A stretch of 64,000 bases of DNA from an uncultured Saprospiraceae bacterium (GTDB taxonomy: Bacteria; Bacteroidota; Bacteroidia; Chitinophagales; Saprospiraceae): assembly GCA_964419545.1 (NCBI GenBank), contig CAYQQU010000029.1, forward strand, positions 68 through 64,067. Reading direction: 5' to 3'. The notes beneath the pieces were generated by a model. It searched no databases and was not told where the DNA came from. It worked only from the letters and a program-made list of their open reading frames with translations. Below, in pieces: positions 4,430 through 63,898 of this stretch. How positions within the stretch are numbered: position 1 is the first letter of the stretch; each line of letters starts with the position of its first letter. Both the position numbers and the translations under genes were made by a program.

Positions 4430-4432
4430 AGG

Positions 4433-4501
4433 GGTGTGAGTGTGAGTTTGGGTGTGAGTGTGAGTGTGAGTGTGGGTGTGGGTGTGGGTGTGGGTGTGAG
4501 T
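4433..4501. repeat. GT-rich hexamer microsatellite (GTGTGA/GTGTGG/GTTTGG, about 11 units) containing a G3-N3 x4 motif
   Basis: Direct reading. GGG runs at 4474, 4480, 4486 and 4492 are each separated by TGT. The array fills almost the whole gap between convergent stop codons at 4429 (+) and 4506 (-). Confidence 0.9.
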
Positions 4502-31940: not shown

Positions 31941-32270
31941 TCGGCTCACCAGACATTCAAAGACCAAACCCGCACATTCTCGGAATTCAACAAAGGCAGC
32001 TGGGTCGTACTCTGTCGGCTCACAAAGCGCTCAAAGACCAAGCCCGCACATTCTCGGACTTCAACAAAGGCAGCTGGGTCGTACTTTGTCGGCCCACAAA
32101 GCGCTCAAAGACCAAGCCCACACATTCTCGGACTTCAACAAAGGCAGCTGGGTCGTACTCTGTCGGCCTACAAAGCGCTCAAAGACCAAGCCCGCACATT
32201 CTCGGAATTCAACAAAGGCAACTGGGTCGTACTTTGTCGGCCCACAGAGCGCTCAAAGACCAAGCCCGCA
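31941..32270. repeat. 74-bp tandem repeat, about 4.4 copies
   Basis: Units start at 31941, 32015, 32089, 32163 and 32237 (the last truncated) and differ by only a few substitutions. The unit length is not a multiple of 3. The unit has no stop trinucleotide in any forward frame, which explains the three overlapping track ORFs. Confidence 0.9.
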
Positions 32271-38994: not shown

Positions 38995-39252
38995 ACTGGA
39001 ATAATTAAGTTTTTTCAACAATGAAAACCGAGGCAAGTGATGGCTAAAAAATTGATTATCAAGTTATTTCGTTTTTTCATCAGTGTTTCTGCTATCCAAA
39101 AATACGCGTTTTTTTTCAACAAATGCGATTTATTGTCTTTGAGGAAGCAATGGGATAGCGGCATATTTGTATCGTATTCGAGATTGAAATATGAAAAACG
39201 ACTTGCGTCAATGATCTCATCGAACGCTGCACGACCGGCCCGCAACGCCTTA

Positions 39253-43990: not shown

Positions 43991-44056
43991 TTTGCAAAAT
44001 AATTAATTCGTTTTATAAATGGGCTGTTTTAAAACATGGATAAGGTACGGTTTTTT

Positions 44057-44414
44057 AGTCTTTGGTTTCAAGGAGGCAGCCAAAGACCAAAGACTAAAGA
44101 CCAACTGCTAAAGACTAAAAGGCTGAGGTTGAGGCGCCAAAGACCAAAGACTAAAGACCAAAGACCAACTGCTAAAGACTAAAGACCAACTGCTAAAGAC
44201 TAAAAGGCTGAGGTTGAGGTTGAGGCGCCAAAGCCCAAAGACTAAAGACCAAAGACTAAAGACCAAAGACCAACTGCTAAAGACTAAAAGGCTGAGGTTG
44301 AGGTTGAGGCGCCAAAGACCAAAGCCCTCCAGCATCAACGAACCCATCACTCACCGATGTTTTGCCCTCCGCACCGTCGAGCGACCAAAGACTAATGACC
44401 AAAAACCAAAAATC
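44057..44414. repeat. Hierarchical microsatellite array: heptamers AAAGACC/AAAGACT plus hexamers TGAGGT, organised in 3-4 higher-order blocks
   Basis: Blocks lie at about 44080-44136 (57 bp), 44137-44227 (91 bp) and 44228-44311 (84 bp), with a truncated fourth. They differ only in the copy number of the heptamer and hexamer units. An inverted copy (agtctttggt) is at 44057, and isolated heptamers are at 44384-44414. Confidence 0.9.
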
Positions 44415-44497
44415 ATTCCTTATAAACCACTTTTTTTGTCTTTGCTTTCCGCTCCTTTCTCCCCAATATTTGTACCGTAAGTAAACCACAAAGAGCA

Positions 44498-57452: not shown

Positions 57453-60002
57453 ATGCGCCGTCTTCTCCTGCTGCTCCTGAGCTTACCCTTCCTGTTACAC
57501 GGCCAGACCGAAGCCGCTTTCCAAAAGGCGGAAAACCTGGCGGCCGAAGGCGACCGTTACGGCGCCGTCCGGCAGTTGGAACAATTGATCGCCGATTTCC
57601 CGAAACGCGAATACGACTGCTCGGTGGCTTATCTGCGCATCAGCGAACTACAACAGGAAATGGGCGACTTCACCGCCGCCCTGGAGGCGAACGAGCGCTC
57701 CAAAGCGCTGCGCGATGAGCTGCGCGCGGACGATACTGCAGACAACTTTTTCCGGTACGGAGAGATCTACCGGGCGATGGGCCAATACGAAAGGGCGCTC
57801 TTCTATTACGAAAAAGCCCGCGATCTGCCTTTCCTGTTCCCGGAACTGTTCGCCCGGGTGAATGCCGGTATGGGGGAGGCTTTTCTCGCTATGGAGCTCC
57901 ACGATGAGGCGGTTGCCTATTACCGCAAAGCGATCAACCTGCTGGAGATCGAGTTCGGCGCCGACGATCCGTTCCTCTTTTCGTATTACGAGCACGGCGC
58001 GCGCGTGGCGCTGGCCGCCGGCGATCCGGACCTGGCGGCGGCTTACCTGCGGCGGGCGGAAGCCATCCGCACGGACCCGGTCGTGTACTACCTCCTGGGC
58101 GAATGCGCCGCGGCCGAGGAATCGACAGTGGAAGCCCGCGACCAGTGGTTGCGCGCGCACCGTTATTTTAGCGCCGATATCCAGGCTTCGCGCCGCGACA
58201 AAGCACAGACGGAGCTGGCGCTGGCCCGCCTCAATGCCGGGGAGGGCGACCGCCAAGCCGCCTGCTCTTTTCTGCAAATGGCGATCCGCACCCTCTGTCC
58301 GCGCTTCAGCGGCGAAGATTTCCTGGAGAATCCACCCGACGGCGCGCTGGTGCTCGACCCTTTGCTGCTGGTCGAAGCGCTGGGGGTGAAAATAGACTGG
58401 CTCTCCGCCACCGGCGCCGTCGATTCGCTGACCGCCGCCCTGGAAGCGGCGCGCTACGGCGTCAACGTACTGGACGACTTTCTGGCGTTCGGCGACCAGT
58501 CGCAACTCAACTGGCGTCGCGCTACCCGCGTCGCCCATCCTTTTTTCACTGCGGCTATAAAAGCCGGGCAGCGAGCCTATCGACGCACGGGCGACGAAGC
58601 CCATCTGCGGCGGGCCTTTGAATGGGGCGAACGCGGCCGGCACTGGGCCCTGCGCCTCTACCAGCTGCTCTTGCTCCAGCAAAGCCGCTTCGGAGAGCCG
58701 CTGCGGGAAGACTGGAAGGTGCGGCGCTGGCTGCAGGAGGCTACGCAGGAACTGGCCCGCGACCCGGAGAACCAGCGCTTGTGGATCGACGTCAAACAGC
58801 GCCAGCGCCTCCTCGACGAGCGCATCGCCCGCTACCGGGAAGCGGCGCCCGAACTGTACCGCTGGCTCTACGACCGCAGCATTCCCCGCAACCGCGACCT
58901 GCCGGCATTGCTGCAGGAAGATGAACTGTTACTCGCCTATTACGTCGGGACAGACCAGACGTTTATTTTTACTCAGCGGGCGGAAAACCTGTCGCTGCAC
59001 GTAGCGCCCGTCGGCGCCGCTGCACTCGCAGCGCTGGTCGATAGCGTCCGCTTCGGCCTGGCTCGCCGGCGGGAAGAGATGCTGGTTGCCCACGCCGCCA
59101 CTTTATCCGAGGCCCTCCTCGCTCCGGTCGGTCGCGACCTGAAAAGAGCCGATCGCGTGCTCGTCGTACCGCACGGCCCTCTGTACGCGCTGCCTTTTGC
59201 CCTCCTGCCGGGCAAAGCGCCGCGGGGGCGCCGCATCAACCACCGGCAGCTCGATTACCTGGGCGTCGAGAAAACCTTGCTTACGGTCCCCTCGCTCACC
59301 GCCTGGTCCAACTGGTTGCAAAACGAAACGCCGCGCCAGGACAAGACCCTGGCCATCCTGACGGTCGATCCGGAGGCGGCGGCGGTCCCGGCCGACTGGC
59401 GGTTCGTTTTCGATACGCTTTATCAACGCAACGCCCGCAGCTTGCGGGTCTTATCGCGCGACGGGCAGCGGTTGGAGACCTTCAAAAGAGACACCCTTTC
59501 CGTTGATCAGGCAGTGCTCATCAGCGGCGCCCAAGCTGAAGACTGGGAGGCGGCGATGGCAAAGCACACCTACCTGCACCTGCGGGCGCCGGCCTTCGTC
59601 GACGCTACCACGCCCGTTTTTTCAGGGCTGCTGCTGCACCGCCAACGCAAAAAAAAGGAGCTCATGGAGCCGCTATTCAGCGAAGGATTCTACGGGCTGC
59701 CCCTCGGCGGCCGGCATCTGGTGCTGGACGGTTTTACAGGAGAAACGGCAGACTGGGGCCTGGCCGGCAGCTGGCCCGCGCTGGCGACGCCCCTGCTGCA
59801 GGCCGGCGCCCGCTCGGTGATGATCAGCTGGTTCGACGACCCGCGCGACCAGTCCCGCTTCTGGGCGCGCTACTACCAACTACTGCCCGAGCAGCCCTCC
59901 GAAGCCGCTGCTCTCCAAACCTTGCGCGCCGAATGGGTGCGCCGCCCCGAAACCGCCGCTCCCTGGTACTGGGGGGGTGGGGTGATTAGTGGGGGGGGAT
60001 GA
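57453..60002 (+). CDS. Secreted TPR-repeat / CHAT-domain protein (CHAT dyad apparently degenerate)
   Basis: The ATG at 57453 gives the signal peptide MRRLLLLLLSLPFLLHGQ. The N-terminal half has TPR-like repeats. The C-terminal CHAT blocks are RVLVVPHGPLYALPFALL, YLHLRAPAF, HLVLDGFTGE and PWYWGG. Confidence 0.8.
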   Translation: MRRLLLLLLSLPFLLHGQTEAAFQKAENLAAEGDRYGAVRQLEQLIADFPKREYDCSVAYLRISELQQEMGDFTAALEANERSKALRDELRADDTADNFFRYGEIYRAMGQYERALFYYEKARDLPFLFPELFARVNAGMGEAFLAMELHDEAVAYYRKAINLLEIEFGADDPFLFSYYEHGARVALAAGDPDLAAAYLRRAEAIRTDPVVYYLLGECAAAEESTVEARDQWLRAHRYFSADIQASRRDKAQTELALARLNAGEGDRQAACSFLQMAIRTLCPRFSGEDFLENPPDGALVLDPLLLVEALGVKIDWLSATGAVDSLTAALEAARYGVNVLDDFLAFGDQSQLNWRRATRVAHPFFTAAIKAGQRAYRRTGDEAHLRRAFEWGERGRHWALRLYQLLLLQQSRFGEPLREDWKVRRWLQEATQELARDPENQRLWIDVKQRQRLLDERIARYREAAPELYRWLYDRSIPRNRDLPALLQEDELLLAYYVGTDQTFIFTQRAENLSLHVAPVGAAALAALVDSVRFGLARRREEMLVAHAATLSEALLAPVGRDLKRADRVLVVPHGPLYALPFALLPGKAPRGRRINHRQLDYLGVEKTLLTVPSLTAWSNWLQNETPRQDKTLAILTVDPEAAAVPADWRFVFDTLYQRNARSLRVLSRDGQRLETFKRDTLSVDQAVLISGAQAEDWEAAMAKHTYLHLRAPAFVDATTPVFSGLLLHRQRKKKELMEPLFSEGFYGLPLGGRHLVLDGFTGETADWGLAGSWPALATPLLQAGARSVMISWFDDPRDQSRFWARYYQLLPEQPSEAAALQTLRAEWVRRPETAAPWYWGGGVISGGG

Positions 60003-60036
60003 GTGTGGGTGTGGGGATGAGTGTGGGTGTGGGTTC
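59971..60036. repeat. G-run-rich tract including an 18-bp direct repeat (ggggatgagtgtgggtgt x2)
   Basis: The direct repeat units are 59995-60012 and 60013-60030. G runs of 3-8 lie at 59971, 59979, 59991, 60007, 60013, 60025 and 60031. The tract spans the last codons of the CHAT gene and the whole gap to the convergent NUDIX stop at 60041. Confidence 0.85.
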
Positions 60037-62370: not shown

Positions 62371-63585
62371 ATGACTGAAACCTACATCATCGACGCGATA
62401 CGCACGCCGATCGGCAAATTCGGCGGCGCCTTGTCTACCATCCGCACCGACGACCTGGCGGCGCACGTCATCCGCACCCTGACGGAGCGCCATCCCGACA
62501 TCCCCCTCGACGCTTATGACGACGTCATCCTGGGCTGCGCCAACCAGGCCGGCGAAGACAACCGCAACGTGGCCCGCATGGCCCTGCTGCTGGCCGGCCT
62601 GCCCTTCACCGTGCCCGGCGAGACCGTCAACCGCCTGTGCGCCTCCGGCATGTCGGCCGTCATCCACGCCCACCGCGCCGTCACCACCGGCGACGGCGAC
62701 CTTTTCATCAGCGGCGGTGTGGAGCACATGACGCGCGGCCCCTGGGTGATCTCCAAAGTATCCAAACCTTTCGGCCGCGACGCGCAGATGCACGACTCCA
62801 GCTTCGGCTGGCGCTTTGTCAACCCCCAGATGAAAGAACTTTACGGTACCCACAGCATGGGCCAGACCGCCGAAAACCTGGTCGAAAAATACGGCATCTC
62901 CCGCGAAGACCAGGACCGTTTTGCTTACCACTCCCAGCGCAAAGCGGCCGCCGCCCAGGCCGGCGGCCGGCTGGCGGAAGAGATCGTCCCGGTATCCATC
63001 CCTCAGCGCAAAGCCGACCCGATTGAATTTAAGGACGATGAATTTATCCGTCCGGGCACGACCTTGGAAGTATTGTCCAAACTCCGTCCGGCTTTCAAAT
63101 CCGCCGAAGAAGGCGGCGCCGTCACCGCCGGCAACGCTTCCGGCCTCAACGACGGCGCGGCAGCCGTACTGGTCGCTTCGGATAGTGCAGTAAAACGATA
63201 CGGCCTCCAGCCGCTGGCGCGTATTGTCAGCTCTGCCGTCGTGGGCGTAGAGCCGCGCATCATGGGCATCGGCCCCGTCTACGCCTCCCAGAAGGCTCTG
63301 AAAAAAGCCGGCCTCACCCTCGACCAGATGGACATTATCGAGATCAACGAGGCTTTTGCGGCCCAGGTGCTGGCCTGCACCCGGGAACTGGGGCTGGCGG
63401 ACGACGATCCGCGGATCAATCCCAACGGTGGGGCGATTGCCATCGGGCATCCATTAGGTGTGACCGGGGCGCGGATCTTGCAGACGGCGGCGATTGAGTT
63501 GCATAAGCAGCAGCAGAAATACGCGTTGGTGACGATGTGTGTGGGGGTGGGGCAAGGGTATGCGGTGGTGATTAAGCGGGGGTGA
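62371..63585 (+). CDS. Acetyl-CoA C-acyltransferase (thiolase)
   Basis: 404 aa with the active-site contexts [27 protein letters not shown] and CVGVGQG. Confidence 0.92.
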
Positions 63586-63654
63586 GTTTGAGTTTGAGCG
63601 TGGGTGTGGACATTGGAAGTGAGGTTGAGGTTCAGGTTCAGGTTGAGGTTGAGG
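63584..63654. repeat. GT-rich hexamer repeats (GAGTTT x2 ... GAGGTT/CAGGTT x6)
   Basis: Direct reading. The array begins inside the thiolase stop codon. Confidence 0.85.
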
Positions 63655-63847: not shown

Positions 63848-63898
63848 GAACGGAAGAACGGAAGAACGGATGAACGGATGAACGGAAGAACGGATGAA
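63848..63898. repeat. Octamer microsatellite GAACGGAA/GAACGGAT, about 6.4 units
   Basis: Direct reading. It is the reverse-complement motif of the repeat at 8-52. Confidence 0.85.

Follow-up and report, generated by a model that had tools for sequence, protein, structure and literature searches.

The DNA analyzed here (hereafter the window) was a 64,000-nt stretch of contig CAYQQU010000029.1 (C29 below) from an uncultured Saprospiraceae bacterium (accession number GCA_964419545.1), whose genome assembly comprised 6.18 Mb in 176 contigs with 56.7% GC. The element under study was a tandem-repeat array at 44082-44327, located in a 507-bp divergent spacer between the start codons of a 468-aa gene (43990, minus strand, TTG) and a 946-aa gene (44498, plus strand, ATG). 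It was built from AAAGACC/AAAGACT heptamers and TGAGGT hexamers, which were arranged as three blocks (57, 91, and 84 bp) and an incomplete fourth one. A previous sequence-only reading had regarded this array as a candidate phase- or rheostat-variable switch upstream of the larger, adhesin-like gene and its partner; in its genome-wide context, the array was probably a local member of a lineage-specific family of long simple-sequence repeats (SSRs), namely a passive, fast-evolving insert resembling a variable-number tandem repeat (VNTR), rather than a dedicated switch.

The block coordinates were verified letter by letter (Table 1), and the blocks followed the general plan (AAAGACY)n AACTGCT AAAGACT [AAAGACC AACTGCT AAAGACT] AAAAGGC (TGAGGT)1-2 TGAGGCGCC. 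Tandem Repeats Finder (TRF) recorded 2.9 copies of an 84-nt period at 44080-44324 (87% matches, score 376), together with nested rows of periods 7, 14, 21, and 6. The heptamer dimer AAAGACYAAAGACY was found 10 times in the window, every time within the array region, compared to 0.01 expected from shuffles. Repeat-family material, composed of a left hairpin, the blocks, a 59-66-bp tail, and degenerate heptamers (~44049-44414), occupied about 366 of the 507 bp of the spacer. The heptamer/hexamer array and its block lengths had been described in the sequence-only reading, and the letter-by-letter parse and the TRF score reproduced them exactly; its further statement, that the blocks differed only in unit number, stood as far as whole-unit differences were concerned, but one AAAGACC to AAAGCCC change and a C/T alternation also distinguished the blocks. 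The left-edge hairpin (DNA fold: -10.9 kcal/mol, z -3.09; RNA fold: -24.4 kcal/mol) enclosed a loop of ~19 nt, and no open reading frame (ORF) was present at the array locus.

The same words were amplified across the genome: AAAGACCAAAGAC and TGAGGTTGAGGT occurred 146 and 156 times, respectively, compared to less than one expected, and about 60 heptamer loci and 59 hexamer loci were counted at a threshold of at least two heptamers or at least two hexamers. GAGGTT (84 arrays), AAAGACC (62), GGGTGT (43), and AAAGACT (12) dominated the 5-9-nt repeats in a TRF census of the genome. The family comprised three kinds of element: (i) tracts of AAAGACY heptamers, many of which took the hairpin form (RGTCTTT)n-loop-(AAAGACY)n; (ii) tracts of TGAGGT hexamers; and (iii) a higher-order unit of ~110-130 bp, (TGAGGT)n-TGAGG-[68-bp core]-CGCC-AACGACT-(AAAGACC)n. 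The latter was observed at many loci (for example, C103:12847-13587, C14:2285-2851, C118:1630-2299, C34:1-351, and C95:1-310) in the form (TGAGGT)n TGAGG-GCTCCGCGGGTG...TTTACGACG-CC AACGACT (AAAGACC)n AACGACC AATAGGT. The 68-bp core (GGGCTCCGCGGGTG...TTTACGACGCC) was present in 50 copies at 24 loci, representing 41 distinct sequences without indels. A coding role of the core was rejected, its variation having no 3-nt periodicity and some copies containing stop codons; a structured RNA was rejected as well, since alifold of the 41 sequences gave -1.7 with no supported helix and no covariation.

The array of the window could be aligned with this family unit. Its linker AAAGACC AACTGCT AAAGACT AAAAGGC TGAGGT was colinear with AAAGACT AACTGCC AACGACC AATAGGT TGAGGT of the family, and TGAGGCGCC and the junction TGAGG|CGCC matched the two ends of the 68-bp core. 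Judged from these matches, the window unit appears to be a core-less derivative of the higher-order unit: the core would have been lost, leaving the junction TGAGG|CGCC, and replication slippage and unequal recombination would then have multiplied the core-less unit and altered its length, as judged from the whole-unit differences between blocks and from a twin array elsewhere in the genome.

This twin, array B, was split by the assembly. One part formed the end of C29 (64939-64983, ~870 nt past the window end) and the other the start of contig C14 (1-280); the word AACTGCTAAAGACTAAAAGG was found only in the window array (array A), at the very end of C29 (64962), and at the C14 start. The two contig ends overlap and evidently form one array lying ~20.5 kb downstream of array A in direct orientation. 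Array B was composed of uniform 50-bp core-less blocks with AAAAGGT in place of AAAAGGC, followed by a 66-bp tail common with array A and then by inverted (ACCTCA)n. The tail at 44321-44386 was 98.5% identical to C14:167-232, with a single A/G difference, and its part at 44328-44386 can be read as a truncated version of the 68-bp core that is inverted and has diverged. The tails were thus nearly identical while the blocks were different, and therefore the array structure changes much faster than substitutions accumulate in the flanking DNA. The array bears the mark of having expanded and contracted repeatedly over evolutionary time, as had been proposed from the whole-unit differences between blocks; slippage is the probable mechanism. 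Two direct repeats 20 kb apart could also mediate deletion or duplication of the interval between them.

The distribution of the family was then compared with gene positions, taken from crude gene calls (4566 genes, 89% coding). The tracts were 75-85% intergenic, though only ~11% of the genome was non-coding. Heptamer tracts were located in 28 convergent, 35 co-directional, and 15 divergent spacers, and arrays with the 68-bp core likewise occurred in spacers of all three types. Large arrays adjoined pheS and the genes for an Asp/Glu racemase, a methyltransferase, and a CcmB-type transporter (ccmB), and many tracts lay at gene 3' ends. Nineteen loci were hairpins (RGTCTTT)n-loop-(AAAGACY)n; 18 hairpin loci were classified, 14 being intergenic, and nine of these 14 separated a convergent gene pair, at 4-29 nt from the stop codons. 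The tracts were accordingly spread over genes of various kinds rather than tied to surface or host-interaction genes (housekeeping neighbors, all spacer classes, and one of 13 cassettes as given below).

The family was also restricted to this lineage. Among 121 genomes of the taxonomic family, the 68-bp core was present in this genome only (none of 120 other genera), and (AAAGACC)3 had 44 matches in this genome, being found elsewhere in only two of 150 other genera. Scattered other phyla contained (AAAGACC)n at multiple loci, which may be simple convergence. A specially favored status of (AAAGACC)n as a word was rejected, as it was no commoner within the family than its reversed control. Two further genera of the taxonomic family had in turn amplified that control, (CCAGAAA)3 (seven and three matches), and different genera apparently each amplified a heptamer of their own. 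Loss of mismatch repair as the cause of the SSR abundance was rejected, because MutS and MutL were present and intact.

The position of the array relative to the promoters was examined by comparison with cassette 1, a paralogous gene pair of the window. The motif TTGTCTTTG-N21-ATATTTGTAyCGTA was kept upstream of the cargo genes of both cassettes (39131-39176 and 44436-44479), its 21-nt spacer being non-conserved; in a Bacteroidota -33/-7 scan, the -7-like box AATATTTG was located at 44465-44472, with TTTG (-33, 44441-44444) 20 nt upstream. On the other side, TTAATTATT was kept directly upstream of the partner-gene starts of both cassettes and probably indicates where the promoter-proximal or initiation region of the 468-aa gene lies, and TTATTTTG at 44002-43995 was a near-match to the Bacteroidota -7 box. 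A sigma-70 promoter and terminator scan, the model of which is ill-suited to Bacteroidota, found nothing. The array would therefore lie upstream of both putative core promoters (plus side 44436-44479; minus side ~43995-44006) and not within either, because the promoter-like motif shared with cassette 1 sits downstream of it. The observation of the sequence-only reading that the spacer of cassette 1 carries no such array was correct. Among 13 paralogous cassettes listed, only that of the window had an array upstream, and none was found upstream of the homologous genes at the 11 best loci in relatives.

Table 1. Features of the divergent spacer and its repeat array (window coordinates)
Feature	Position	Strand	Composition or basis
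Motif TTAATTATT, 8 nt before the start of the minus-strand gene	43998..44006	-	Alignment of the minus-side upstream regions of both cassettes
Left-edge hairpin	44049..44102	.	Arm TTTAGTCTTTGGT (44054-44066) pairs with ACCAAAGACTAAA (44086-44098) inside the first heptamers
Block 1, 57 bp	44082..44138	+	3 heptamers, AACTGCT, AAAGACT, AAAAGGC, 1 TGAGGT, TGAGGCGCC
Block 2, 91 bp	44139..44229	+	4 heptamers, AACTGCT, 2 heptamers, AACTGCT, AAAGACT, AAAAGGC, 2 TGAGGT, TGAGGCGCC
Block 3, 84 bp	44230..44313	+	AAAGCCC, 5 heptamers, AACTGCT, AAAGACT, AAAAGGC, 2 TGAGGT, TGAGGCGCC
Truncated block 4	44314..44327	+	AAAGACC AAAGCCC
Tail common only to arrays A (window) and B	44328..44386	+	blastn against the genome
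Degenerate heptamers	44387..44414	+	AAAGACT AATGACC AAAAACC AAAAATC
Putative core promoter of the 946-aa gene	44436..44479	+	TTGTCTTTG, 21-nt spacer, ATATTTGTACCGTA; motif scan and conservation with cassette 1

The repeats occupied the non-conserved middle of the spacer and both promoter-proximal segments were intact; therefore, a hypermutable but functionally passive insert is the most likely identity of the array. The array length would probably differ between strains; at most, the array could exert a modulatory effect on both genes by way of upstream DNA spacing or topology. Several points weigh against this reading: (i) the promoters were assigned from motifs and paralogue conservation, and a transcription start site farther upstream would place the array in a 5' untranslated region (UTR); (ii) in known switches, the repeat that tunes an adhesin can lie upstream of the core promoter or in the 5' UTR, as in hmw1A (PMC12721329); (iii) TGAGGT tracts were sense-biased between co-directional genes (23 versus nine), which hints at selection at the RNA level; (iv) the gene calls behind the context statistics were crude, and the term passive is itself drawn from genomic context; and (v) a modulatory effect of the array on the two genes is possible.

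As a class, the family belonged to the long SSRs of the short tandemly repeated repetitive (STRR)-type heptamer kind, which is already known, and it displayed each of the defining features tested: a tandem unit within 5-11 nt in runs beyond chance length, many dispersed loci, a mainly intergenic position, and a sporadic, lineage-specific distribution. Heptamer repeats were described in cyanobacteria, and ever since, what they do and how they arose have been open questions. As summarized in PMC4679880 and PMC4692102 from Mrazek 2007, in many bacteria no long SSRs are more over-represented than heptamers, which are mostly intergenic and sporadic. Xanthomonas carries ~186 GGGAATC loci, including inverted pairs (PMC4692102), and TAACTGA repeats were reported in Beggiatoaceae, cyanobacteria, and some Bacteroidetes as mixed heptamer assemblages, with contigs ending in arrays (PMC4679880). 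The family of this genome resembled the STRR, GGGAATC, and TAACTGA repeats in having a 6-7-nt unit, a single word or small set of words that had multiplied to occupy tens to hundreds of intergenic sites, a sporadic lineage-specific spread, lengths varying between loci, inverted pairs with stem-loop potential, mixed heptamers in one spacer, and assemblies breaking at arrays; unlike them, it had a higher-order unit of ~110-130 bp around a 68-bp core plus core-less blocks of 50-91 bp. The AAAGACY and TGAGGT words gave only chance matches in human primer sequences in the searchable literature.

BOX elements of S. pneumoniae, bacterial interspersed mosaic elements (BIMEs) and repetitive extragenic palindromes (REPs) of enterobacteria, and VNTRs of mycobacterial interspersed repetitive units (MIRU-VNTRs) are modular extragenic repeats. 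The present family was similar to BOX, BIME, and MIRU in its dispersed intergenic modules, variable copy number, local tandem amplification, and hairpin potential, but its heptamers had no association with REP-associated tyrosine transposases (RAYTs), and its modules were microsatellites rather than fixed boxes. Membership in the REP/BIME-RAYT system was rejected, as the Y1 transposase gene of this genome (C162:1913-2257) was flanked by different tandem REPs and not by heptamers. That locus (C162:1400-2800) was a Y1 (IS200/RAYT-like) gene (95 bits) with inverted tandem REP-like hairpin copies GCCCCGATGGGGC...ATATTTGTAG on both sides, a layout that looks like the classical RAYT/REP arrangement.

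Other assignments of the array itself were tried. A clustered regularly interspaced short palindromic repeat (CRISPR) array was rejected, the blocks being made of repeat words only, without unique spacers, and kinship with the 74-bp tandem repeat (4.2 copies) at 31957-32270 was rejected, its blastn similarity amounting to one common heptamer. No Rfam covariance model matched in the window. As features of miniature inverted-repeat transposable elements, no terminal inverted repeat or target site duplication was obvious in the flanks as read, no systematic search having been made. The window contained further tracts of the SSR families, namely (TCTTCCGTTCTACTGC)n and the complementary (GAACGGAA)n close to its two ends, along with (GTGTGA/GGGTGT)n and (TGAGKT)n, with coordinates 9-45, 4432-4501, 59979-60034, 63583-63654, and 63848-63898.

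Among the competing explanations, the one that survived best concerned the origin of the array, being compatible with its interpretation as a passive family member. The arrays could be gene-less stems, or remnants, of cassettes resembling intervening sequences (IVSs) that elsewhere enclose a small PF05635 gene, and the window array would have arisen when the A/C-rich 3' arm of one such empty stem, the hairpin at 44049-44102, expanded; this origin is conceivable but doubtful. Hairpin polarity argued for it. The hairpin of the window had its G/T arm first, as did all heptamer hairpins of this genome (RGTCTTT first in 19 and AAAGACY first in none), and among 118 loci of (AAAGACC)>=4 from many phyla GGTCTTT was present upstream only in 26 and downstream only in two, a ratio that became 24:0 for loci of other phyla (Acidobacteriota, Bacteroidota, and others) under a stricter criterion. 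Two cassettes pointed in the same direction. Two strong PF05635 genes ("23S rRNA IVS protein", four-helix-bundle) were found in this genome, on C115 and C129, and the former (C115:~990-1510; 77 bits) was located between tRNA-Ser(GCT) and tRNA-Pro(TGG), an IVS-like layout in a tRNA operon. It was bracketed by words from the hexamer SSR families of the genome itself: a 5' arm with GGGTGT/GGGTTT/TGAGGT and a 3' arm with ACCTCC ACACCC ACACCC AAACCC, the joined arms folding at -53.7 kcal/mol. The second cassette, in an Acidobacteriota metagenome-assembled genome (JALYTI010000039), had a PF05635 ORF (94.6 bits) with a GGTCTTT arm on one side and an (AAAGACC)4 arm on the other. As in PF05635 (S23p) intervening sequences, a G/T-rich 5' arm faced a complementary A/C-rich 3' arm; unlike them, the window locus contained no ORF or ORF remnant, and displayed only a short-loop hairpin with one-sided expansion. 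Further points stood against this origin: (i) no PF05635 gene in this genome had AAAGACC arms; (ii) the other strong copy (C129) had unrelated arms; (iii) the 68-bp core showed neither coding periodicity nor covarying structure; (iv) TGAGGT arrays seldom formed hairpins; (v) the supporting cassettes examined numbered only two; and (vi) in one locus, the GGTCTTT/AAAGACC inverted arms, in reverse orientation, instead bracketed a gene for a small membrane protein (DUF2905). The full proposal, that the window array and at least 100 SSR loci are the gene-less stems and runaway expansions of a self-propagating IVS-like class whose full form encloses a PF05635 gene, is rather unlikely, and the PF05635 link is suggestive and unproven, concerning the origin and not the function of the window locus. 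A weak PF05635/Avd-like ORF also occurred on contig C1 (C1:~162400-163400), where it adjoined a reverse-transcriptase-like ORF and lay downstream of a gene whose terminal C-type-lectin/FGE-like tail was followed by a GC-rich hairpin; this locus is probably a diversity-generating retroelement.

A dedicated phase-variable or rheostat switch would mean that the number of units or blocks alters expression of the secreted DUF7619 protein (encoded by the 946-aa gene), its partner, or both, either by changed spacing of upstream elements or through a transcribed 5'-UTR hairpin. The tract was clearly mutable, it was placed upstream of a gene for a large secreted protein of the type IX secretion system (T9SS) type, within a divergent regulatory spacer, and its hairpin took in the first repeats. 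The closest functional analogue of this idea would be hmw1A of H. influenzae, in which a 5'-UTR (ATCTTTC)n hairpin is processed by RNase III and tunes the adhesin level (PMC12721329), heptamer control of HMW adhesins being known (PMC8262952). The window array shared with hmw1A/hmw2A a heptamer SSR upstream of a large secreted adhesin-type gene, repeats in a hairpin, and a mutable copy number; however, the hmw repeats are transcribed in the 5' UTR and adhesin-specific (PMC12721329 and PMC8262952), whereas the window array lay upstream of the putative promoter, was a composite of 7-mers, 6-mers, and linkers, and belonged to a family beside unrelated genes. Identical units beside housekeeping genes and at gene 3' ends, arrayless loci in the other 12 of the 13 paralogous cassettes and at all 11 homologous loci in relatives, the position of the array outside the core promoter elements kept between cassettes, and intact MutS and MutL all spoke against a dedicated switch for the adhesin-like gene; this central proposal of the sequence-only reading found no support in the genomic context and is improbable.

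It is equally improbable that the 57/91/84 structure is partly an artefact of short-read assembly, the true array being longer, shorter, or reordered. The assembly was a short-read draft, the array copy numbers came from this single assembly, and repeats of the family were enriched at contig ends (13 of 352) and N-gaps (nine of 35) compared to 0.5% of random 200-nt windows. The break inside array B, which divided it over two contigs, and the three Logan contigs carrying the 946-aa gene (SRR7048222-SRR7048224), all of which ended at 44334, would also fit an artefact; these contigs ended 31 nt before the single difference to array B and were therefore uninformative on copy number. Against it, the assembly ran through the whole of array A into unique sequence on either side, the blocks of array A bore distinguishing variants (AAAGCCC, and AAAAGGC versus AAAAGGT of array B), and the whole array of 246 bp was within paired-read reach. 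Least probable is that the array provides multivalent binding sites, rather than a length switch, for a nucleic-acid-binding protein (a nucleoid protein or a post-transcriptional regulator): the dominance of a few specific words genome-wide, the orientation bias of TGAGGT, and the precedent of such a hypothesis for TAACTGA repeats (PMC4679880) were outweighed by the lack of any candidate binder identified, the high variability of the arrays in content and position, and the absence of the family from almost all related genera.

As for the neighboring genes, the 946-aa protein contained a DUF7619 domain, and its cassette 1 paralogue had, in addition, a T9SS C-terminal sorting domain; the gene product is a large secreted T9SS-type protein. 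The 468-aa partner had no Pfam match and came from a family of many copies, of which this genome contained 15 and relatives as many as 32; it was 45% identical to the best relative, and the exact 468-aa product had no match on record. A Joint Genome Institute (JGI) metagenome scan yielded only relatives of 26% identity. RadA of this genome had 72-77% identity to genomes of the same GTDB family, 72% to a Lewinellaceae metagenome-assembled genome, and 71% to a Saprospiraceae one, which points to a Saprospiraceae/Lewinellaceae-like Bacteroidota.

A gene-family link to heptamer repeats would be of real interest, although it is not established here: if true, the strict G/T-arm-first polarity would be the signature of an IVS-like element, and an IVS-like class would explain the long-noted heptamer excess of bacteria. 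For the locus itself, the result is a warning that a promoter-region microsatellite is not automatically a contingency switch, and given the genome-wide context, a passive, fast-evolving repeat is what should be assumed here by default. In this environmental member of the Bacteroidota, the 6-7-nt repeat families provide a clear case of a burst specific to one lineage, with a higher-order unit, a strict hairpin polarity, and a PF05635 cassette made of the same words; the arrays of this family account for many breaks in the assembly, and such arrays would be good VNTR markers for strain typing.

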